From: Endomicrobiales bacterium
GTDB lineage: Bacteria > Elusimicrobiota > Endomicrobiia > Endomicrobiales > CAWCFT01
Length of the DNA: 64,000 bases
Assembly: GCA_963794945.1 (NCBI GenBank)
Contig: CAWCFT010000001.1
Location: 96,001 to 160,000, forward strand
Direction: 5' to 3'
Below, piece after piece: positions 38,659 to 50,477 of the stretch (position 1 is the stretch's first letter; each line of letters begins with the position of its first letter). Made by a program: the position numbers and the translations under genes. A model generated the notes under the pieces. The model saw only the letters and a list, made by a program, of their open reading frames with translations, was not told where the DNA came from and made no database searches.

Positions 38659-39267
38659 TCAGTAACTTCTACTAACGCCGTCTATCGGAAGAAAATACCC
38701 TTTAATATTATTCAGGTTCCTTACACAAATTTGAATATGATTTTTCTCTCTAAAACCGGCATTAGGGTAAAGCAGTCTCCCCTCCCAAAAAGGGCTTCTA
38801 ACGGTATCATAAGGCTTTTCTTTAGATACGTCAATAATGGTGTGCAGTGTCTGTATCACGGCGCAATCCAACTTTCTTCTCAAAGGCACTTCTTCTTCTG
38901 ATTTAGAATTTTCTGGAATTTTTTCACCGCGTTTATTTAAGTCTTCAATTAAAAAATTATAAGTATCTTTAACAGCATCCAAAGCTTTCTGATCAAATAG
39001 ATTTAAACAGCGCCCCAAATCGATGATTGCCCCTATTACCGCAGGGTTATTGATCACTTCCGAACATCTTTCCGGATGGTCTCTCATTTCTTTAGCATAC
39101 TGCAATGCCCTGTGCGGGTCATTTTCCCAAAAGTACATACCGTGGCCGAGCCAATCATAATCATTTTTACTTGGATGCTGGCTTTCTTTTTTCAGCAATA
39201 GTTTGTCCGCTGTTTTCTGGTCACAACCATGAAACCCAAAAACAAAAGATGGTAAAATTGAATACAT
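38659..39267 (-). CDS. Hypothetical protein with ADP-ribosyltransferase-like motifs (putative toxin)
   Basis: GFHGC, WLGHGMYFWE and IQICVR motifs in AT-rich DNA. Confidence 0.6.
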   Translation of the reverse strand: MYSILPSFVFGFHGCDQKTADKLLLKKESQHPSKNDYDWLGHGMYFWENDPHRALQYAKEMRDHPERCSEVINNPAVIGAIIDLGRCLNLFDQKALDAVKDTYNFLIEDLNKRGEKIPENSKSEEEVPLRRKLDCAVIQTLHTIIDVSKEKPYDTVRSPFWEGRLLYPNAGFREKNHIQICVRNLNNIKGYFLPIDGVSRSY

Positions 39268-39899: not shown

Positions 39900-40457
39900 C
39901 TACTTCAACTCCGCGTCCAGCAGCGCGATGTACTGCTCCTTTGTCATCCCCATTTTACTAAGCTGGGCATCAACCATGGGCGCAAGGCCGGGGTTTTCCA
40001 TTGACGCCTTTATCATCTGCAGCGCCGTCTTGTTGCCCGTCAGGCCGAGGCTCTTTATGGTATCGGCAGGCGGCAAAGTAGCCGCACCTTGCGCGGGAGC
40101 CCCTGCATTGACTGCCTTGATCTTCCCGCCCTTGCCCGCGGAAGAGGAGGGCCCTGTTGAGTGTTTTTTGTGCGTGTTCGGCTTCAATGTCGCCTTCACT
40201 TCAAAGCCCGTATCTCCCACATTTTCAACCTTGAGAACCATAAGTTTATACGCCGCTCCCATGCTTCTCGCAAGCTTCGCAAGTTTCTTCACTTTACCAC
40301 CGGCTTCTTCCCTGCTTTTTGCTTCAATATCAAGCTTCAACCCAACCCCCGGCTTTGCCTTCAACTGCCCATAAACTTGCTTCAAAAACAGCTTCTCTTC
40401 CGCGCCGCTGTCAGCTTCCTTTGCCAGCTCAAACTCCCCTACGATTTTCATAGCCAT
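39900..40457 (-). CDS. Hypothetical protein
   Basis: 185-aa ORF with AAGGAGG RBS. Confidence 0.65.
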   Translation of the reverse strand: MAMKIVGEFELAKEADSGAEEKLFLKQVYGQLKAKPGVGLKLDIEAKSREEAGGKVKKLAKLARSMGAAYKLMVLKVENVGDTGFEVKATLKPNTHKKHSTGPSSSAGKGGKIKAVNAGAPAQGAATLPPADTIKSLGLTGNKTALQMIKASMENPGLAPMVDAQLSKMGMTKEQYIALLDAELK

Positions 40458-40519
40458 TGTGGCCTCCTTTCAGCCCTGGTCCGCCTTCCCCCATCAGAAC
40501 TGTGCCGCAAATATTATGC

Positions 40520-41165
40520 TTCCAATCCAGCTTCCGTTTTGCTTACATCTGTCTTCGCGAGGCCGCCTCTGGCGGGCGTGGCGATCTTGATGTTCGCCTT
40601 CCTTTCAGCTTCAATTCAAGATTCCAATTTGCTTCCAGTTAAGCTTCATGTTTGCTTCCAATTCAGCTTCCATTCTGCTTCCATCAAGCTTCCCTTAAGC
40701 TTCCTTTTTGCTTCTAGTTTAGCTTCCATTTCGGCTTCTATTTTGCTTCCATTCGTCTTCGCGAGTCCGCCTCTGGCGGGCGTGGCGATCTCGATGTTAG
40801 CCTTCCTTTCAGCTTCCATTCAAGCTTCCATTTTGCTTCCAGTTAAGCTTCATTTTCGCCAACATTCCGCGCATTAAACTCCTTCGCCCAGCAAGTCAAA
40901 TCCGCCGTGGTAGGCAGGTGGTATAAATGTTTGTCAAACTTCCTCTCCATTGATGGGAGAGGATTGAGGTGAGGGTGAGATTGACCAACTTTCAGCTTCC
41001 TATTTGCTTCCAATTAAGCTTCCGTTTTGCTTCCATCTGTCTTCGCGAGTCCGCCTCTGGCGGGCGTGGCGATCACGACGTTAGCCTTCCTTTCAGCTTC
41101 CATTCAAGCTTCCTTTTTGCTTCCAAATCAGCTTCCATTAATGCTTCCCTATCAGCTTCCCTGCC
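40520..41165. repeat. Three imperfect copies of a GTCTTCGCGAG-CCGCCTCTGGCGG-GTGGCGATC unit embedded in AGCTTC-rich short repeats
   Basis: Core copies start near 40551, 40756 and 41039. Confidence 0.8.
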
Positions 41166-41744
41166 GGCAGTTTAAGCCCTTCCTATCAATGAGCACTGAA
41201 GCCCCTCAATCTTACACAAATAGCCCTGAAATCCGCCTTCTTGTGTTGCGGAATAATCATTCATAATACAACAACTTAATGCATTTGATGTTAAACCTGG
41301 TTAGTGAAAGCCTGACATCGTTTAGTTGTAAAGTCTTTGCCCGCGAACGACGAGCAACGAGATACGAACGACTGCCTCTAGGTTTTGCACAAATATTTAT
41401 AGCAGATTTTTTGAATATTTCAAGGTTTTGAGAGTTTTGAGCGGGAGGGTTAACCCCGTTAGAGGAAACGGGCACTTTGCGAATAAAGATGGCTACATTA
41501 CACCACCATCTAACAGCATTGATTCAAACCACCGACAGGAACCGGCGGCATCCTCTAACGTGGTGAAGATTAACACTGCGCAAGCAGAAACATTAGTGAA
41601 GTCGAGTGGCCTGACATCGGAAGAGTTATGTCTCTAATTCCCACAATAGGTTCAACAAGTCAAGCCTGATAATATGAAAGCAACCTCCATCTAGTTTTGT
41701 TAAACTTATTGTATCGAGCAATAAGACAAAACGAGGAGGTTGCC

Positions 41745-42770
41745 ATGAATTATGTTGGTGTAGACTTGCACAAAGAGCGTTCTTGGTTTTACGTGACGAA
41801 CGAGCAGGGCAAACGGATTGACAGCCAGAGTATAGCAAATTTGCCAGAAGTGTTGCGATCATATTATAAAACGCTCCCACGACCATTTACACTTGCAGTT
41901 GAAACGACTTACAATTGGTACTATTTCGTTGATCTCGCCGAAGAATATGCTTACAAGGTGTATCTTGCGAATTCGTACGAGCTGAAAGCATTTGCAAAAC
42001 GAAACAAGAAAACAGAACAAGATAGATGCCCGGCTTATAGCCGATGTGCTCCGTAAGGGCTATTTACCTACAGTAGAGCTGCCAAACAAGAAGATACGAG
42101 CTATTAAAGAACTGTTGCATTGCCGGATGAGCATTGTCAGTGAACGAACGCGGAACACAGCACGGTTAAAGTCACTTCTTGATCGCCATGGACAGATGTC
42201 AACGGGTGACTATACTTCAATGAAGCAATTGAACGGTATTGCGGTGAACAAATTATCTGAACCGTGCCGGATTGCCGCAGAAAACTGGATTGAGCAAATA
42301 GGCGCTTTGAATGCGCGTGAAAACCGTATCGGGTGGCAACTACATGCAATAGCCGAAAGTGATCCCGACGCACGGAATCTTGAAAGTATTCCTGGGATCG
42401 GCAGTTTTAGTGCATTGCTTATTAAAAGCGAGATAGGCGATATTAGCCGTTTTACAACATTTAACCGCCTCTGCGCGTACGCAGGCCTTGCACCGAGAAC
42501 ATTCCAGAGCGCCGACAAAGAATATCACGGTTCTTTAAATAAGAATCGGCGTAAACACCTACAGTGGATATTGATTGAGGCAGTTCACCATTTTTCAAAG
42601 AGAGCGTTGAACGAACAGAAAAGTATGAAGCTATAGCCAAACGGAAAGCGCCCAACGTGGCGCGAGTGGCTCTTGCCAGAGATTTATTGAAAATTGTGTA
42701 TCGAGTTTTGAAAGATAAGCGGCCATATTATATACGGACTACGGCGTCCCTCGCGCTCAATGGTGCCTGA
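41745..42770 (+). CDS. IS110 DEDD recombinase/transposase (one +1 and one -1 indel relative to copy 2)
   Basis: VGVDLHK, AVETT, IDA and GLAPRTFQS motifs. Confidence 0.9.
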
Positions 42771-42900
42771 AGTGTCCGCCGCAAGGCTGACAGCTTCAAC
42801 AAGTCTGATTAGCGGAGGGGCGTCGCCCGATTCTATCATGCAGTCCGCCAAGTGCAGAGCTGCCAATAGGTGACTGAAGTCCGGATATTTTCGGAGCTTC
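42740..42900 (+). ncRNA. Predicted bridge/seek RNA of IS copy 1 (boundaries approximate)
   Basis: Internal loops carry segments matching the target and the donor junction (see findings). Confidence 0.7.
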
Positions 42901-43041
42901 TTACGATACAAAGCGGGCGAACGGCCAAAGAACTTGTTTAACAGAACAGATCAGTAGTTAGAAACTACTGCGGAGATACTTTTTGTCACCTTGACTTTTT
43001 CTTTCATAGGTGACACCGTTCATCGAATGGTAGTTTGGGGA

Positions 43042-43124
43042 ATCGCAAACTTGGAACAGTCACCTCAGGCAATCGCCGGCCTCTTGACGAGACCCGCCAG
43101 TTGTTTTTGGCGGGCCTGACTCCA
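43042..43124 (+). repeat. Diverged inverted copy of the ~110-bp repeat ending GGCGGGCCTGACWCCA
   Basis: TCGCARACTTGGAACAGT...TTTGGCGGGCCTGAC is shared with the copies at 47949 and 48936. Confidence 0.8.
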
Positions 43125-43151
43125 CTTAATATTTTACTAACACCAATTTCT

Positions 43152-44258
43152 TTAGATTGCCAATACATTTCTTAAAGCTGAATCGATTTCATCCCAATCT
43201 TTAATCCAGCAAACAGCAACCCCTAAATGGTGAAGACCGCATTCCATAATATCACGCAACCATTTTTCTTTCGGTAAAACATTAACCCACACATGGTATG
43301 CAGGAATTTTAGCGCCTCCTGAAATAACGTCAATGTCATTAATATTATTTTTATGTGTCCAAGCCAACCATTTTCTGATATTTAAATCGCTTAGCGAATG
43401 CCCTATTATCAGCATTCTTGTTGTTTGAGCATAATATAGAAAAGTCGACTGAGTCCAGGAAGACATGTTACCAGCTATATCCAAATAATCTTTCTCTCGA
43501 AATACAAGTTTATCTCTTGAATCTCTTCGATGTTCCTTTAAGGCTACTTTAACGTTAGGCGCAATCGCACCATGACTATAAATGAATGGAATGCTCCCAT
43601 GCCATACATATTGTGACCTAAATACACTTTGATATTTCCTCTTCGGCCTCACGTGTTGCCCTATTTTTGTTTCATGTTCATTAATTGCTAGTACATCTGT
43701 AATTGTATATAAAAGAGTATCTGCATTAAAACTGAGTACCGCTGTTGGGGCTTTGGGTGTATCAACTAAGTCGTTTAATATCCGAGAAAGACTAAAGATT
43801 GTCGTTTGCTTAAATTCTTTTTCCAAAAATACATATAGCTTTTCCATTTGACGTAGTTTTAAATATCTCGGATCACTCAATGCTATAATCAGCTCTTTTG
43901 TTACATTATATGTGGTAGCCTTTTTGAATAGATCATTATAAAGAGCTGACCCAAGAATTGAAATAAACTTTCTCGCATCAGTGCTACTGGAGTCTATAAT
44001 ATTTTCGGCTGCTTGAATATAGGCATCTAGACCCCAGCCCGTATTTACACAAGCTTTTTTAAATTCATCAAATGCTATTTTTGTCTTAAAAGCATCCTGC
44101 AGTACATGCCAAGTCAATTCACTCCAATTAGGAACTAACCCAGTAGAAGTTCCGGCTCCAATGCATAAAGTCCAAGGAACATTGCTTACGCTTCCCCTAT
44201 ATTTAGTTTCCAGTCCAAAGAAGGACTCTTTCAATGGTCGTACACATTTGACAAGCAT
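43152..44258 (-). CDS. SIR2-like domain protein (putative NADase defence effector)
   Basis: CIGAGTS...PNW, SFNAD, HG and IIGHSLSDLNIR motifs in AT-rich DNA. Confidence 0.8.
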   Translation of the reverse strand: MLVKCVRPLKESFFGLETKYRGSVSNVPWTLCIGAGTSTGLVPNWSELTWHVLQDAFKTKIAFDEFKKACVNTGWGLDAYIQAAENIIDSSSTDARKFISILGSALYNDLFKKATTYNVTKELIIALSDPRYLKLRQMEKLYVFLEKEFKQTTIFSLSRILNDLVDTPKAPTAVLSFNADTLLYTITDVLAINEHETKIGQHVRPKRKYQSVFRSQYVWHGSIPFIYSHGAIAPNVKVALKEHRRDSRDKLVFREKDYLDIAGNMSSWTQSTFLYYAQTTRMLIIGHSLSDLNIRKWLAWTHKNNINDIDVISGGAKIPAYHVWVNVLPKEKWLRDIMECGLHHLGVAVCWIKDWDEIDSALRNVLAI

Positions 44259-44318
44259 TGTTCGCTCCTTAAAATAGGAACTTTGACTTTAGTGAAAACG
44301 TTAGCCTGACACCATTTC

Positions 44319-46535
44319 TTATTCTTCTTGCCTGTTATTTTTTTGTATTGTATCTAAAATATTGTGTGTGTGCAACCGCAATTTCATTGCCTCTTCCGCT
44401 GTTAATTCGTCAGAGTGAGCAATTTTATTTCTTATCGATTGAAGCTCAATAAACTTCGAGTAAAATAGTTCCTTACTTGAAAATACTTCTTTAAACACTT
44501 CTTCCCAATTATCTCTCCTCGCAATTATTTTATAGTAATCCGGAAAATCAACTGATATCATTTTTGATTTTTCTTCAGGTATTGCCCATGGATATATATT
44601 TTCTTTTTTACTGTGCCTGTCTTCGGCATTTTCCTTCACATCTGAAGGTATCCTTTCATTCCACCAATTACTACTAATACCATTAAGCTTAGTTTCAACA
44701 AATGTTCTTAAATTGACCTCCAGGTCTTTCAAAATATTATAAGGCTCTGACTTTTGGTAAGCCATTTTCTTTCTCTTCTCAATATCCTTAATATATTCTA
44801 TGGCAAACAACTCATTTGACTTATTAATTGTTTCGATGATCATCAATGCAATGTTTGCTCGCCCAGCTTCATTACTTGTCATTGCACGGTATTCTTTAAT
44901 TTTTGAATAATTATTTAAAAAGAATGCAATAATCGGCTCTTTTATTAAATCTTCTACTTTTCTCTTATCCCATACACCTTTGAAATATTGCAACACCTCA
45001 ACCAAAACTCTTGTGAATATATTGAAACCATTGTTATGAAGAATAAAACCTTTTTTCCACTCATGATATTCCTCCGCAAATGAATCTATGAGGGTAAAAT
45101 ATTCATTAATGACTTTCTCGGGGAAGACAAGAATACTATCGGGAAAAGGAATCGTTTCGCTTACTTCTCCATTTTTTTGGTATAGGTTATACGTTCCCTT
45201 AACAAGCGGATCAATAATCTTTCTGTCATATAAAGTATTGCATATGTTAGCTAATTTTAGGGGATATGCCGATGCTTTGCGTTGTTGGTGTCTAGGAATA
45301 AGAATTTTACCCTTGAAATATCCAGTTTTATTAAGTTCTTTTGCTATTTTGGTTATTGCACCCTGAATAGAATTCGGATCAGTTTGTGAAAGCAAATCCC
45401 ATAACAAATTTGGATCTACAGATTTCTGTTTTTGATTAATATCAATAAAATCTCTAGCTTGTTGTTTTTTTCCAATATCTTGATATGCTGTAACACTAAT
45501 ACAATATTTTAGTTTCTCGGTATTAGCTTGGGTGTAGCCATAAATTCTATGTTGCCCATCGATGATCCAAACGCTACCATATATTTTGGGGATAGAAAGT
45601 ATCCCAAACGCCATATTGGTATCTTGCAGAAGTAATCCAGTATTTTTTGGCTCAAATGTCACTTGCTTTTCAAAACTACAAACCACATTGTTTTTAAAAA
45701 ACCCTCCATTGTCAATGTATTCAGCTATACCAGGCTCTTCTGTTGTTCCAAAAATACGTTTTTCATTAATAAATCTCTGGTAAGCATCTTCATTTCCAGA
45801 TTGAAGCCTGAACACGTAAACTAAATTCAATAGTTTTTCAACTGGTATATAAAAACTAAATATTTCTTGGTCTCCAATTGTTACTTTAAAACTTGGGACT
45901 TTATAATCAGCACTGCCTTCCTCATCTTTAATATACTTCGGTGTACAATTCAATTCTTTAAGAACATAATGAAATGTTAAAGAGCCAATTACTTTATATA
46001 ATCTTTCAAGAACATCAATATATCTACTGCACCACAAATATACATCGTTGACTCGTGCAGTCTCTATATCTTTAGGATCAATGTCAATATCATCAACCAC
46101 AAGAACATATCTTACCTCATTATATTTTGATCCGTATTTCTCAGCAATTGCCTTATTAATCTCTATTTGTTTTCCCTTAAAGATATCAATTTCATTTGCG
46201 ATACTTTTTTTCTTAGGCTGATCAGCACTTTTACATTCGACCACAAGCAACGTTCCATTCTTACCACCAACAGCATCTATTTGATATCTACCAAGCCAAG
46301 AATTATAGCCAGATTCAATATCATCAAAACCCAATATTTCAAGCAGAATTCTTACTCTTTCTTGAAATAATTCCCATTTTTTAAATTTTTTCTCTAAAAT
46401 AATCTTCCCATTATCAGTTTTTTTAATTAGGAAACCAACTTTCTTAAAAGATTCTATTTCATCCTTATTTTCCAACTCAATCTCAACTAATTTATTCTTT
46501 TGAGGACTAGGCACTTTCCATTTACTTTGCTTCAT
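44319..46535 (-). CDS. PD-(D/E)XK nuclease - DGQHR (DndB-like) - Swt1-like HEPN fusion protein
   Basis: QIDAVG..LLVVECKS, YQR, IIDGQHR, FIDIN.KQK, LEVNLR..WW and RNKIAH. AAGGAG RBS before the ATG at 46535. Confidence 0.85.
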   Translation of the reverse strand: MKQSKWKVPSPQKNKLVEIELENKDEIESFKKVGFLIKKTDNGKIILEKKFKKWELFQERVRILLEILGFDDIESGYNSWLGRYQIDAVGGKNGTLLVVECKSADQPKKKSIANEIDIFKGKQIEINKAIAEKYGSKYNEVRYVLVVDDIDIDPKDIETARVNDVYLWCSRYIDVLERLYKVIGSLTFHYVLKELNCTPKYIKDEEGSADYKVPSFKVTIGDQEIFSFYIPVEKLLNLVYVFRLQSGNEDAYQRFINEKRIFGTTEEPGIAEYIDNGGFFKNNVVCSFEKQVTFEPKNTGLLLQDTNMAFGILSIPKIYGSVWIIDGQHRIYGYTQANTEKLKYCISVTAYQDIGKKQQARDFIDINQKQKSVDPNLLWDLLSQTDPNSIQGAITKIAKELNKTGYFKGKILIPRHQQRKASAYPLKLANICNTLYDRKIIDPLVKGTYNLYQKNGEVSETIPFPDSILVFPEKVINEYFTLIDSFAEEYHEWKKGFILHNNGFNIFTRVLVEVLQYFKGVWDKRKVEDLIKEPIIAFFLNNYSKIKEYRAMTSNEAGRANIALMIIETINKSNELFAIEYIKDIEKRKKMAYQKSEPYNILKDLEVNLRTFVETKLNGISSNWWNERIPSDVKENAEDRHSKKENIYPWAIPEEKSKMISVDFPDYYKIIARRDNWEEVFKEVFSSKELFYSKFIELQSIRNKIAHSDELTAEEAMKLRLHTHNILDTIQKNNRQEE

Positions 46536-46676
46536 TTTACTCTCCTTTGATAAAATAACGGTGTCACCTATGAAAGAAAAAGTCAAGGTGACAAAAAGTA
46601 TCTCCGCAGTAGTTTCTAACTACTGATCTGTTCTGTTAAACAAGTTCTTTGGCCGTTCGCCCGCTTTGTATCGTAA

Positions 46677-46837
46677 GAAGCTCCGAAAATATCCGGACTT
46701 CAGTCACCTATTGGCAGCTCTGCACTTGGCGGACTGCATGATAGAATCGGGCGACGCCCCTCCGCTAATCAGACTTGTTGAAGCTGTCAGCCTTGCGGCG
46801 GACACTTCAGGCACCATTGAGCGCGAGGGACGCCGTA
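46677..46837 (-). ncRNA. Predicted bridge/seek RNA of IS copy 2
   Basis: Reverse complement of 42740-42900. Confidence 0.7.
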
Positions 46838-47832
46838 GTCCGTATATAATATGGCCGCTTATCTTTCAAAACTCGATACACAATTTTCAATAAATCTCTG
46901 GCAAGAGCCACTCGCGCCACGTTGGGCGCTTTCCGTTTGGCTATAGCTTCATACTTTTCTGTTCGTTCAACGCTGCTCTTTGAAAAATGGTGAACTGCCT
47001 CAATCAATATCCACTGTAGGTGTTTACGCCGATTCTTATTTAAAGAACCGTGATATTCTTTGTCGGCGCTCTGGAATGTTCTCGGTGCAAGGCCTGCGTA
47101 CGCGCAGAGGCGGTTAAATGTTGTAAAACGGCTAATATCGCCTATCTCGCTTTTAATAAGCAATGCACTAAAACTGCCGATCCCAGGAATACTTTCAAGA
47201 TTCCGTGCGTCGGGATCACTTTCGGCTATTGCATGTAGTTGCCACCCGATACGGTTTTCACGCGCATTCAAAGCGCCTATTTGCTCAATCCAGTTTTCTG
47301 CGGCAATCCGGCACGGTTCAGATAATTTGTTCACCGCAATACCGTTCAATTGCTTCATTGAAGTATAGTCACCCGTTGACATCTGTCCATGGCGATCAAG
47401 AAGTGACTTTAACCGTGCTGTGTTCCGCGTTCGTTCACTGACAATGCTCATCCGGCAATGCAACAGTTCTTTAATAGCTCGTATCTTCTTGTCTGGCAGC
47501 TCTACTGTAGGTAAATAGCCCTTACGGAGCACATCGGCTATAAGCCGGGCATCTATCTTGTCTGTTTTCTTGTTTCGTTTTGCAAATGCTTTCAGCTCGT
47601 ACGAATTCGCAAGATACACCTTGTAAGCATATTCTTCGGCGAGATCAACGAAATAGTACCAATTGTAAGTCGTTTCAACTGCAAGTGTAAATGGTCGTGG
47701 GAGCGTTTTATAATATGATCGCAACACTTCTGGCAAATTTGCTATACTCTGGCTGTCAATCCGTTTGCCCTGCTCGTTCGTCACGTAAAACCAAGAACGC
47801 TCTTTGTGCAAGTCTACACCAACATAATTCAT
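46807..47832 (-). CDS. IS110 DEDD recombinase/transposase, 341 aa
   Basis: GVDLHK, VET, KTDKIDA, IPGIG and YAGLAP..QS. Confidence 0.95.
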   Translation of the reverse strand: MNYVGVDLHKERSWFYVTNEQGKRIDSQSIANLPEVLRSYYKTLPRPFTLAVETTYNWYYFVDLAEEYAYKVYLANSYELKAFAKRNKKTDKIDARLIADVLRKGYLPTVELPDKKIRAIKELLHCRMSIVSERTRNTARLKSLLDRHGQMSTGDYTSMKQLNGIAVNKLSEPCRIAAENWIEQIGALNARENRIGWQLHAIAESDPDARNLESIPGIGSFSALLIKSEIGDISRFTTFNRLCAYAGLAPRTFQSADKEYHGSLNKNRRKHLQWILIEAVHHFSKSSVERTEKYEAIAKRKAPNVARVALARDLLKIVYRVLKDKRPYYIRTTASLALNGA

Positions 47833-47948
47833 GGCAACCTCCTCGTTTTGTCTTATTGCTCGATACAATAAGTTTAACAAAACTAGATGGAGGTTGCTTT
47901 CATATTATCAGGCTTCACTAATTACACTAACTCTCTGTCAACCTTCAA

Positions 47949-48059
47949 AAATGGTGTCAGGCCCGCCAAAGATAACCGGTGGATCTCGCCAAGAGGACGG
48001 CGGCTGCTTGAGGCAACTGTTCCAAGTCTGCGACTCCGACTTGACTTATTGTACTTATC
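47949..48059 (-). repeat. ~110-bp direct repeat downstream of KilA-N
   Basis: Aligns with 48936-49046. Confidence 0.88.
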
Positions 48060-48083: not shown

Positions 48084-48899
48084 TTATTTCAGACTTTTAA
48101 TCGAATTACTGGAAAGAAGCGAACGCATTTGTGCAATAGCGATTTCGTTCAGCTTTATTATTCTTTCCGATTGTTTCATCCCCTGGCGTATCAGCACAGA
48201 GTTTATGCTTTCAAGGTTGCTGAGCACTACTAGTTGTTCGAGAGTTGCACAATCGCGGATATTGCCCTCTTTGCCCGGATTTTCCGAACGCCACGCAGCC
48301 GCGGTTTTACCGAAAAGAGCGACATTAAGCAGGTCAGCTTCTGAGGCGTATATATTATTTACTTGTTGTTAGCTCAATTCTTTCGGCATAAGATTTTCTT
48401 TTATCGCGTCCGTATGAATGGTATAATTAATTTTGGCAAGAGTGCGTTGAAGGTTCCAACCAAGTTTTTTCGAGGATATTTCTTCGTCTTTTAAACGCTG
48501 AAATTCTTTTATCAGATATAGTTTGAATTCCACTGAAACCCAGGAAGCAAACTCAAAGGCTATATCTTTATGGGCGTACGTGCCCCCATACCTTCCCGGT
48601 TTTGAAATAAGGCCTCGCGCTCCGGTTTGTTCTATCCACTGCTTTGCGGTAAGAACAAAACTGTTGATCCCTGCCTGTTTTCTAAACCCCTCGAATTCGG
48701 TGGGTTTAAAAAGCGGGTTGTTAAGCTGTTCCCATATGCCGAGAAATTCTATTGTATTGCGGTTTCTAAGCCAATTCTGGATTATATAGTCTGTTCTGGC
48801 AGGATCTTTATAACGCGCTATATCTGTAATACATATATAATCATCCCGTTCTTTTGAGTAGAAAGACACAACAGTGTCCAATACTTTAATGTGGCTCAT
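48084..48899 (-). CDS. KilA-N domain DNA-binding protein (one in-frame TAA at 48369-48371)
   Basis: DYICITDIAR, NWLRNRNTIEFLG and GRYGGTYAHKDIAFEFASW. The same frame continues YASEADLLNVALFG after the stop. Confidence 0.88.
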
Positions 48900-48935
48900 T
48901 TCAATTCTCCTTTTATGAGCTAAATTCTCCTCAAT

Positions 48936-49046
48936 AAATGGTGTCAGGCCCGCCAAAGATAACCGGCGTACCTCGCCAAGAGGCTGGCGGCTGCCTGAGG
49001 CGACTGTTCCAAGTCTGCGACTTCGACTTGACTTATTGTACTTATC
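48936..49046 (-). repeat. ~110-bp direct repeat upstream of KilA-N
   Basis: Aligns with 47949-48059. Confidence 0.88.
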
Positions 49047-49104: not shown

Positions 49105-49249
49105 AAAAAAACCACAGCTATCCTATGACAGCGGTGGTTTGAAGATCAATTCCCGATATACTATCAGATTCGATTTGGCCCATTTTCCATATCCCCTAAG
49201 ATTTGGCAGGCTATAAACGGATTCTAGCTCTTTGAAGTTTTTATGTCAA
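49105..49249 (-). promoter_or_regulatory. Sigma70 promoter, short uORF and terminator facing the defence island
   Basis: TTGACA-N17-TAGAAT (49249-49221), uORF MENGPNRI (49190-49164) and an AAACCAC...GTGGTTTTTT hairpin. Confidence 0.6.
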
Positions 49250-49791: not shown

Positions 49792-49821
49792 AACCGTTAC
49801 AACCGCGTAGGTTGCAACGGT
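49792..49821. repeat. REP-like palindrome flanking the RAYT
   Basis: AACCGTTACAACC-gcgta-GGTTGCAACGGT. Confidence 0.8.
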
Positions 49822-50477
49822 CATTCCAACAACAAATCTTTTATTTTATGTAATTCCTGCTGATAAGATATTCTGTCTTCCACAAAGTTTTTATATTCAC
49901 CTGAGCTGATCGTGATAAGGTCGCGATGACTGGTTAAATTATTTCTATCGTAAATTCCGCTTAGGTATTCCTTGTAAGATGAGGCCTTCCATGATTCGGG
50001 TTTATCGGTTAATTCGGATGTAACAGGATTTAGATGGACGTATCTTGTTAAATGGAGTAAATATTCGTTTGTGTTGACCAGCACGCTTTTGAACCTGCTC
50101 TCCCATAGAGGCCCTTTTCTTTCGTGCTTTGTATTAAAATATCTAGTATAGCTGTTTAAAACGTTGTTCATGAAAACTGATATTCCTTTTCCAGTGTTCT
50201 GCTTCAACACAAAATGCACATGAGTCGGCATAATACAGTACGCGATTATTTGCACCAGATCATTTTTCGTATCATGGAATCCCATGAAATCAAGTTTATT
50301 TTCTCTTAAAAGCTTGTCGTATCTTGAAAAACTGATATCCGGTTTTTCCTTTTGATAGAACTTTACAGCTTCAAGCATCCTGAAATAATCCGTCTCCGTA
50401 TTAAATATAATGTACCGGGCTATACTTCTCGAAAACACGTGGTATACTTGTCCCTCAACTAACAAATCCTTTCTCAT
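49821..50477 (-). CDS. REP-associated tyrosine transposase (RAYT, IS200-like Y1 HUH)
   Basis: YHVFSR, YCIMPTHVH (HUH), LWESRF, YVHLNPV and W..SSY. Confidence 0.9.
   Translation of the reverse strand: MRKDLLVEGQVYHVFSRSIARYIIFNTETDYFRMLEAVKFYQKEKPDISFSRYDKLLRENKLDFMGFHDTKNDLVQIIAYCIMPTHVHFVLKQNTGKGISVFMNNVLNSYTRYFNTKHERKGPLWESRFKSVLVNTNEYLLHLTRYVHLNPVTSELTDKPESWKASSYKEYLSGIYDRNNLTSHRDLITISSGEYKNFVEDRISYQQELHKIKDLLLE

Follow-up and report, generated by a model that had tools for sequence, protein, structure and literature searches.

The locus described here raises the question of whether two adjacent, putatively anti-phage genes act as one module or are separate systems lying side by side. It belongs to a 64,000-nt stretch of an Endomicrobiales genome (GCA_963794945.1, contig CAWCFT010000001.1, positions 96,001 to 160,000), the whole of which is referred to as the window and whose coordinates are used throughout. 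One gene encodes a fusion of a nuclease-like, a DGQHR and a HEPN domain, and the other a SIR2-like protein. A first-pass annotation made from the letters alone had read them as a single undescribed module, in which a DGQHR sensor gates DNase and RNase activity and is possibly coupled to NAD+ depletion. We consider it probable (roughly 0.6) that they are independent cassettes in a mobile-element hotspot, namely a triggered fusion protein with putative DNA- and RNA-cutting activity, and a lone SIR2 protein that would consume NAD+. The features of the locus are the following.

43152-44258, reverse strand: stand-alone immune-type SIR2 gene, 368 aa, with GAG 34-36, N178 and H229; predicted NADase (profile, structural model, homologues)
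44259-44318, forward strand: 60-nt gap holding the SIR2 ribosome-binding site and an CCTGACACC motif (~44303-44316) that points into the fusion
44319-46535, reverse strand: nuclease-DGQHR-HEPN fusion gene, 738 aa (open reading frame (ORF) list, Pfam, NCBIfam; AlphaFold2 model with mean pLDDT 87)
44331-44750, reverse strand: Swt1/AbiF-type HEPN domain of the fusion, aa ~596-735, with R702 and H707; predicted RNase (PF18731, VIA-align)
45336-45896, reverse strand: DGQHR (DndB/ParB-like) domain, aa ~214-400; predicted switch binding nucleoside triphosphates (NTPs) (PF14072, TIGR03187, VIA-align)
45936-46379, reverse strand: PD-(D/E)XK restriction-endonuclease fold, aa ~53-200, with Q85, D87, E100 and K102 (VIA-align and 25 of 25 relatives)

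Co-occurrence of the two gene families

The fusion family was sampled at 80 loci, the best of at least 481 confirmed matches in GTDB genomes that are mostly incomplete, and the SIR2 family at 72 loci. A profile of 93 homologues served as the SIR2 probe, and profiles of the nuclease, DGQHR and middle domains as probes for the fusion. No SIR2 relative was found near any of the 80 fusion loci, 67 of which have at least 1.5 kb of downstream sequence, nor at any of 42 viral loci of the fusion family. In the reverse and weaker direction, where 29 loci have at least 2.5 kb upstream, the fusion was near none of the 72 SIR2 loci. A whole-genome scan, with the host genome as positive control in its second run, recovered the SIR2 family from one of 80 fusion-bearing genomes, as a match with an internal stop that lies outside the 10-kb flanks of the fusion. 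Co-occurrence of homologues was the check that the first-pass annotation had set in advance against its own proposal; it came out negative, which leaves the suggested coupling to SIR2 and NAD+ depletion unsupported.

The two genes are intact and co-oriented, and the 60-nt gap between them holds a mobile-element motif found beside unrelated accessory genes of the host genome as well; from its sequence, the gap reads as a seam between mobile units. Because the families do not co-occur and this motif sits in the gap, a two-gene module is not supported, and the fusion and SIR2 genes are likely two separate anti-phage cassettes side by side. Both are more AT-rich than the host, as originally noted: the host genome's 1166 long stop-to-stop frames have a median GC content of 48.4%, and the fusion (31.9%) ranks in the lowest 0.3% of them and the SIR2 gene (36.5%) in the lowest 2.5%. 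Neither a full-length fusion (there are two shorter relatives) nor the SIR2 family turned up when 400 further genomes from the host phylum were scanned, which fits horizontal acquisition.

Domain architecture of the fusion protein

Read from its ATG, the fusion protein comprises 738 aa; an alternative TTG start (755 aa) falls inside the end of an upstream IS110 element. The motifs (QID..VECK at 85-102, IDGQHR at 325-330 and RNKIAH at 702-707), the Pfam and NCBIfam scores and the restriction-endonuclease fold all agree with the three domains originally assigned. The Pfam models DndB (PF14072; residues 214-388) and HEPN_Swt1 (PF18731; 602-730) both score above cut-off, as does TIGR03187 (DGQHR) with 103.9 bits against a cut-off of 58.85. 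Placement in the DGQHR family (TIGR03187/PF14072) is further borne out by the motifs QR (253-254), DGQHR (326-330) and FxxxN (363-367), and placement among the HEPN RNases (Swt1/Abi2) by the PF18731 score, the fold and the Rx4H motif. The N-terminal domain has no Pfam match in the window protein.

Foldseek, suggested at first pass as a check, gave a divided result, in that the SIR2 fold found clear matches to defence proteins (described below) and the whole 738-aa fusion model nothing at E 0.001 or better; a PDB sequence search with the fusion profile likewise returned nothing meaningful. The domains were resolved by VIA-align of the AlphaFold2 model, with the helical region 400-590 barely covered. 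Residues 53-200 aligned to restriction-endonuclease folds (Z 12.8 to AF1548, 10.2 to Can2 and 9.5 to NucS), residues 222-371 to the ParB-like PadC (Z 7.2) and KorB (6.3), and residues 590-738 to AbiF (Z 7.9) and the Swt1 C-terminal domain (7.8). Values of Z below 8 are modest, and the calls for those domains lean on agreement with the sequence profiles.

All eight catalytic positions are retained in each of 25 full-length near relatives. Across 106 homologues the DGQHR motif is invariant, R330 included, while R702 and H707 of the HEPN domain are found in 96 and 90, respectively. This set came from a whole-protein search, and its DGQHR conservation is not the product of a motif pattern; in pattern-found loci such conservation is circular because the motif belonged to the locus search patterns. 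Both flanking nuclease motifs are retained down to ~25% overall identity. The closest relatives are 49-60% identical to the window protein, and those with names are Patescibacteria.

EVE domains read modified bases. Two homologues carry an EVE domain as an N-terminal extension (P0085, P0082) and a third a HARE-HTH domain (P0072), a type also reported to read modified bases (PMC10853773). The window's fusion has no modified-base reader domain of either kind. The near relative P0017 has an unnamed N-terminal extension of ~200 aa, at 0.91 to a cluster with 49% EVE.

Genomic partners of the fusion family

Among 105 chosen neighbours of the fusion loci scanned with Pfam, Dam-type methylases were found at 16 loci, mostly overlapping the fusion stop codon, followed by N4/N6 methylases at seven, C5 methylases at four and MT-A70 at one, with B12/radical-SAM genes at ~11 and GHKL ATPases at four loci. 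Further neighbours include DpnI, DpnII-like, HaeIII, SacI, MutH/Vsr and AIPR genes. Profile counts place a methyltransferase or radical-SAM gene no further than 300 nt from the fusion at 31 of the 80 loci, and no further than 2.5 kb at 37; methyltransferases account for 23 of 80 at the shorter distance. The same profiles found such a gene in one of the 72 SIR2 loci, used as a comparison set. Every one of seven viral full-length fusions has an adjacent partner (Dam in six, radical SAM in one), and plasmid fusions are accompanied by a second DGQHR gene, a radical-SAM gene and an ATPase.

Partner type follows fusion clade in a FastTree phylogeny, from which two of the 80 loci, having short anchor frames, were omitted and whose long branches are unsure. 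A B12-binding radical-SAM gene with a CxxxCxxC motif fills the slot taken in other clades by a DNA methylase (L019, L030, L031, L033, L040, L044, L046, L062, L068, L072 and L173, and plasmids L156 and L157). This gene has no PADLOC or specific NCBIfam name and is a candidate writer of an unknown DNA mark.

Three further gene arrangements were seen in and around the family. In 11 of the viral contigs L176-L189 and L198, a DGQHR-only gene of ~340 aa directly follows an N4/N6 methylase as a recurring two-gene unit. Bipolaricaulota (L048, L049, L053, L055, L064) carry a HEPN-less form of 500 aa coupled to a metallophosphoesterase gene. Three unrelated genomes share a gene of ~250 aa without a Pfam match, located ~550-730 nt upstream of the fusion (L008:4359-5132, L015:8654-9424 and L038:8492-9217).

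Partnerless copies

The first-pass annotation had remarked that dnd, dpd, TIR and HerA partners were missing, and a Pfam scan of 53 window ORFs, a subset of the total, bears this out with no match to these or to DNA methyltransferases. Partnerless copies also occur elsewhere. Among the 59 fusion loci whose flanks each reach 1.2 kb or more, a partner is detected by profile at 31, by Pfam at two more (L020, L036) and as a radical-SAM/GHKL module slightly further away at another two (L068, L078), leaving ~24 with no partner nearby. Ten are partnerless complete triples by profile, with L036 and L078 set aside. Rejected as solo copies were L022, in which a methylase fragment is displaced 3.8 kb upstream and whose sister L017 has the methylase adjacent, L006, in which the nuclease frame is split, and L008, which has K replaced by Y. 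Seven motif-intact solo loci (L005, L010, L023, L032, L035, L045 and L060) show no methylase or radical-SAM match within 3 kb, many of their neighbours being without a Pfam family, and the window's fusion is the eighth intact partnerless copy. Such copies speak against a simple restriction enzyme dependent on a methylase of its own.

The host genome, which is 86% complete, has no match for a Dam, DndC, DpdA or radical-SAM partner. Two methylases, one Type III-like and one C5, are encoded elsewhere in it, each next to an apparent restriction gene of its own. The only near-clade locus with flanking sequence is L001 (<1 kb on each side), with ObgE upstream and an unknown gene downstream; the near clade was found in none of 400 further genomes of the class of L001.

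The SIR2 protein

The 368-aa protein matches Pfam SIR2_2 at 5e-05 with 23.8 bits, slightly below the cut-off of 24.5, although its fold is clear and upholds the original call of a SIR2-like gene 60 nt downstream of the fusion: the model (pLDDT 94) matches KomC (2e-09), ThsA and DSR2. It has seven strands of three or more residues, a helical insert of ~120 aa after the first strand and no CxxC pair in its sequence. GAG, N178 and H229 are invariant across the 93 homologues, 47 of which are matched by a ThsA SIR2 model. Immune SIR2 proteins (SIRim) are defined in 10.1101/2024.09.18.613514 by a Rossmann SIR2 fold with at least seven strands, catalytic Asn and His, and no zinc site, and the window protein has the sequence and fold described there.

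SIR2 homologues are typically ~350-390 aa long. A search at E 0.001 gave 314 cluster representatives, the best 150 of which are at most 476 aa, and a weak search found no homologue of 672-2000 aa and no longer fused form. PADLOC 2.0.0 gave no match. No neighbour family recurs around the homologues at the 72 loci; a Pfam scan of 100 of the 157 listed neighbours, plus one extra, found varied company, comprising restriction-modification (R-M), CBASS, Shedu, reverse-transcriptase, RES and Fic genes, integrases and one Y1 transposase. A GmrSD gene lies 2.5 kb away at one locus and a CBS-HEPN gene next door at another, both from families distinct from the fusion. Taken from its sequence and predicted fold, the SIR2 gene is likely a lone single-gene NADase, and thus one more candidate of this kind.

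A CBS-domain protein with a weak HEPN signal, encoded 3' of a SIR2 homologue (L124:8836-9810), resembles the CBS-HEPN layout of DS-11.

The mobile-element setting

Inverted copies of an IS110 element bracket the fusion and SIR2 pair, an arrangement that had been missed at first pass together with the elements' insertion motif in the gap. The relevant features are listed below.

41658-43020, forward strand: second IS110 copy, 99.7% identical and inverted; transposase frame split by two 1-nt indels
43039-43127, forward strand: ~90-120-nt repeat ending in an CCTGACACC-type motif, downstream of the SIR2 gene
46557-47919, reverse strand: IS110 element with an intact 357-aa transposase frame (46807-47880), in an CCTGACACC-type site
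48369-48956, reverse strand: KilA-N gene, PADLOC candidate PDC-S22 (1.7e-89), another motif-bounded island gene
49821-50477, reverse strand: Y1 (HUH) tyrosine transposase of the REP-associated type, below the family cut-off

The IS110 element at 46557-47919 is inserted ~25 nt upstream of the fusion ATG. Both copies occupy an CCTGACACC-type target motif, a free copy of which lies in the 60-nt gap, and the motifs on both sides of the fusion gene point inward. Between 41301 and 49046 the layout is nested, with CCTGACACC-type motifs at both IS110 sites and at approximately 41309, 41608, 43113, 44303, 47963 and 48950, all directed toward the fusion; the repeat at 43039-43127 has inverted copies at 47942-48059 and 48929-49046. 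On its reverse strand the motif is one base off GGGGWSAS, given in passages of PMC3733652 and PMC6006769 as the consensus of repeats linked to TIRYT tyrosine transposases. The host genome holds five near-identical IS110 copies (98.5-100%; contigs C1, C2 and C3), and IS110 appears to target the repeat family because the four copies with a readable right flank occupy CCTGAC(A/T)CC-type sites.

Elsewhere in the host genome, the motif brackets a CheB/CheR and PAS sensor-kinase pair (C2; L210:3532-8260), precedes a cluster of Vsr, C5 methylase, NgoFVII-type restriction and ABC-ATPase genes (C5; L211:277-4620) and lies beside a second Y1 transposase (C15; L212:3241-4796). A distant fusion homologue in a WOR-3 genome (L015:9919-12600) is bracketed, as the window's fusion is, by inward CTGACCCC / GGGGTCAG motifs and by pairs resembling miniature inverted-repeat transposable elements. 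Inward terminal motifs are not general, being found at one of 74 fusion loci and none of 56 SIR2 loci (0.26 and 0.24 in shuffled sequence). The fusion family itself is patchily spread over plasmids, prophages and islands. An integron cassette array was rejected, as no IntI scored above cut-off in the host genome (TIGR02249 best 80.9 bits against 265).

Two sigma-70-like sites match at 11 of 12 positions. One (49221-49249, reverse strand) lies upstream of the whole array, and the other (44248-44275, forward strand) is antisense to the fusion 3' end and overlaps the SIR2 start; either could be chance because 24 such sites were found against 18 expected. No promoter-like site lies between the upstream IS110 and the fusion ATG. 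Four low-depth contig sets, which cover little of the locus and are uninformative on cassette loss, contained no joint skipping either gene. A 151-nt contig from a second study matches 44237-44387 exactly.

The KilA-N gene is shorter than the PDC-S22 model (195 versus 281). A further island gene of 202 aa (38659-39267) is weakly similar to PD-T4-9A (1e-05), and a non-coding or poorly coding segment at 40378-41160 contains three 138-nt copies and many short TTCC/GCTTC-rich repeats.

Proposed mode of action and alternatives

Judged from its domains and their relatives, the fusion is most likely a nucleotide-gated DNase-plus-RNase abortive-infection protein, and a DGQHR sensor gating both activities, as originally suggested, stands as a reasonable mechanism. 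The DGQHR domain would bind and hydrolyse NTP and thereby hold both cutting domains off in a healthy cell. The trigger would be a change in DNA (a foreign base mark, or the loss of the usual mark) or an altered nucleotide pool, upon which the N-terminal domain would nick or cut DNA. HEPN domains dimerise. Such dimerisation is treated in passages of PMC13092281, and the HEPN domains of two subunits would form an RNase that stops translation, leading to abortive infection. The SIR2 protein would act separately through phage-triggered oligomerisation and NAD+ depletion. We infer the DGQHR switch from analogy with SspE and DndI, where a ParB-fold NTPase licenses a nuclease, and with PrrC and RloC, where an NTPase gates a HEPN RNase. 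In the window's lineage the trigger is more likely brought by the invader than a missing cognate self-mark, because intact copies persist with no methylase nearby.

More tentatively, the window's clade may represent a complete one-gene immune system, in which the DGQHR switch fires DNase and RNase on phage-borne DNA chemistry and a self-mark is unneeded. If so, the methylases and B12/radical-SAM enzymes of other clades would serve a single sensor as tuners that can replace one another, with the radical-SAM enzymes producing a DNA modification of unknown kind. Candidate roles of DGQHR/DndB-type domains in defence are those of regulator, nucleotide-degrading effector and switch (PMC10853773). 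A solo gene is the simplest handle on what these domains sense: with the DGQHR domain flanked by a DNase fold and a HEPN RNase, both intact, and no modification partner, the question reduces to one clone and three point mutants. Should solo copies protect, the family would not simply be R-M with a swapped methylase.

Several observations weigh against this interpretation of the fusion. The nuclease and switch activities are predicted from sequence for all family members, and K102 is substituted in 25 of 106 homologues, so that in some lineages this domain may cut DNA weakly or serve as a binding module. The window's copy may be poorly expressed because IS110 lies 25 nt upstream with no promoter-like site between. 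A distant self-mark may exist, since the host genome is 86% complete and has two methylases elsewhere. The solo state of the closest clade is drawn from the window, L001 and five sister clades, two of which (L002, L004) have R-M genes near. The partner counts are not independent, because the hidden Markov models were built from these very neighbours and the Dam-linked loci fall mostly in one clade. The P0017 extension has no BLAST match to the two EVE extensions, and its EVE-like call is a lead only.

The best-placed alternative, which we regard as unlikely, is that the fusion forms the restriction half of an R-M-like system, cutting DNA that lacks the partner's mark with HEPN as back-up. The partner would be a Dam-type, N4/N6 or C5 methylase or a radical-SAM enzyme, and the window's copy an orphan, either silent or covered by a methylase elsewhere. 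The partner gene often overlaps the fusion stop or start codon, it lies within 2.5 kb in 37 of 80 loci and accompanies all seven viral copies, the IS110 directly upstream could silence the window's gene, and the displaced methylase fragment at L022 has an adjacent counterpart in sister L017. Against this stand the partnerless copies that are intact, at least seven of them and spread over several branches, and catalytic residues retained without exception in 25 of 25 near relatives. Partner chemistry, moreover, differs by clade (m6A, m4C/m6A, m5C and radical SAM), and several loci have their own separate restriction enzyme.

Less probable still is a PrrC- or AIPR-like guard of other defence systems, which would monitor an R-M complex or its cofactors, fire its HEPN domain upon phage inhibition and use the nuclease fold mainly to bind DNA. 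This would suit the better retention of the HEPN residues than of the nuclease lysine and the position of the fusion in or beside complete R-M operons (L002, L004, L041, L051), and the same model is proposed for HEPN domains in R-M loci in PMC3710099 (section 10). However, no one guarded system recurs throughout the family, solo copies stand beside nothing that could be guarded, and near-clade proteins retain the complete DNase motif.

A two-gene module, with infection sensed by the DGQHR protein and NAD+ depleted by a SIR2 protein coupled to it, is highly improbable and should be dropped: co-transcription of two co-oriented, AT-rich genes 60 nt apart is possible, and both lie inside the same IS110 pair and the same longer-repeat pair and could have moved together once, but the families fail to co-occur at 80, 72 and 42 loci and in all but one of 80 genomes, their GC contents differ (31.9% versus 36.5%) and a mobile-element motif stands in the gap. 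Very doubtful, too, is a role outside defence as a DndB-like protein that binds DNA under ATP modulation and regulates the modification genes next to it, its nuclease domains being vestigial. DndB is reported to act as a negative regulator dependent on ATP (PMC10853773), but the nuclease motifs on both flanks persist down to ~25% overall identity, the spread over mobile elements is patchy and the window locus offers nothing to regulate.

Comparison with known systems

Taking independent cassettes as the preferred reading, the SIR2 protein resembles KomC (Kongming), ThsA (Thoeris) and DSR2 in its SIR2 Rossmann fold, catalytic Asn and His, seven strands and lack of a CxxC zinc site. It differs in what surrounds that fold. 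ThsA of Thoeris has a SLOG/Macro sensor and a TIR partner (ThsB), whereas the fold of the window protein covers SIR2 only, and no TIR was found among the 53 window ORFs or the 100 SIR2-homologue neighbours scanned. DSR1 and DSR2 have a C-terminal sensor of ~1000 aa, whereas the window protein has no large sensor domain. As regards SIR2-HerA, Kongming and SPARSA, no Pfam match to HerA, HAM1/NDK or short Argonaute was found among the SIR2 neighbours scanned.

For the fusion, the nearest mechanistic parallels place a ParB-fold DGQxR domain next to a nuclease, as in SspE, DndI and GmrSD/BrxU (DUF262 ParB-fold NTPase plus HNH), and the QR, DGQxR and FxxxN motifs are common to this group and the fusion (passages of PMC4619093). 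In SspE, GTP hydrolysis requires the DGQQR arginine; marked DNA stimulates this hydrolysis, which in turn licenses the nuclease (PMC13251355). The corresponding residue of the fusion is R330, invariant in its homologues. DndI behaves similarly with ATP (PMC11662687). Unlike SspE, GmrSD and DndI, the fusion belongs to the DGQHR/DndB branch rather than DUF262 (DGQQR), has an N-terminal PD-(D/E)XK rather than a C-terminal HNH domain, and adds a HEPN RNase; unlike SspE and DndI, it has no phosphorothioate genes detected in its host genome, 86% complete. In PrrC and RloC an NTPase gates a HEPN RNase, PrrC being R-M-linked and RloC standing alone (PMC3710099, section 10). The fusion shares with them an NTP-handling domain gating a C-terminal HEPN and the occurrence of both R-M-linked and solo states, but their switch is an N-terminal ABC ATPase, whereas that of the fusion is a central ParB-like domain, and the fusion has a DNase fold in addition. 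It brings together the layout of these proteins and that of SspE and DndI.

DndB and DpdB share the DGQHR domain, but the fusion is twice as long as either and scores far below their cut-offs (TIGR04172, 44.7 versus 450 bits; NF041060, 49.7 versus 300 bits), and the host genome has no match to DndC or DpdA. Type II R-M differs in having an adjacent cognate methyltransferase, which was absent among the window ORFs scanned. Type IV (modification-dependent) restriction pairs a modified-base reader with cleavage confined to modified DNA; such a reader domain is lacking in the window's fusion, while three homologues carry EVE or HARE-HTH and P0017 an EVE-like lead. PADLOC 2.0.0 (2023) gives only partial DpdB and PDC-M34B matches to the fusion. 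The literature searched contained no named or tested system like it, although supplementary tables of recent screens may hold one, and it is not described in the available parts of PMC3506569, PMC4619093, PMC12839542, PMC12914056, PMC13092281 and 10.1101/2024.07.02.601686.

The original description of the locus as undescribed therefore holds in so far as no catalogued system matches in full, and gives way in that passages of PMC3632139 and PMC3710099 predicted the DGQHR/ParB-PD-(D/E)XK-HEPN class in 2013. The former (Makarova 2013) reports a DGQHR/DUF262 ParB-like core often fused to HNH, PD-(D/E)XK and HEPN domains as a possible cell-death system linked to DNA modification, and the latter (Anantharaman 2013) a 'Swt1-like HEPN fused to ParB (Saro_3948)'. 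A full-length homologue of the fusion is encoded on plasmid pNL1 of Novosphingobium aromaticivorans (SARO_RS17535), which may be the cited Saro_3948. The fusions predicted in 2013 and that of the window share domain families and an R-M-linked context; the earlier class is prediction-only, and the passages concerned mention neither the order of the three domains nor radical-SAM partners nor a solo form. The fusion is thus an unnamed variant of the class predicted in 2013, and what is new here is its partnerless state.

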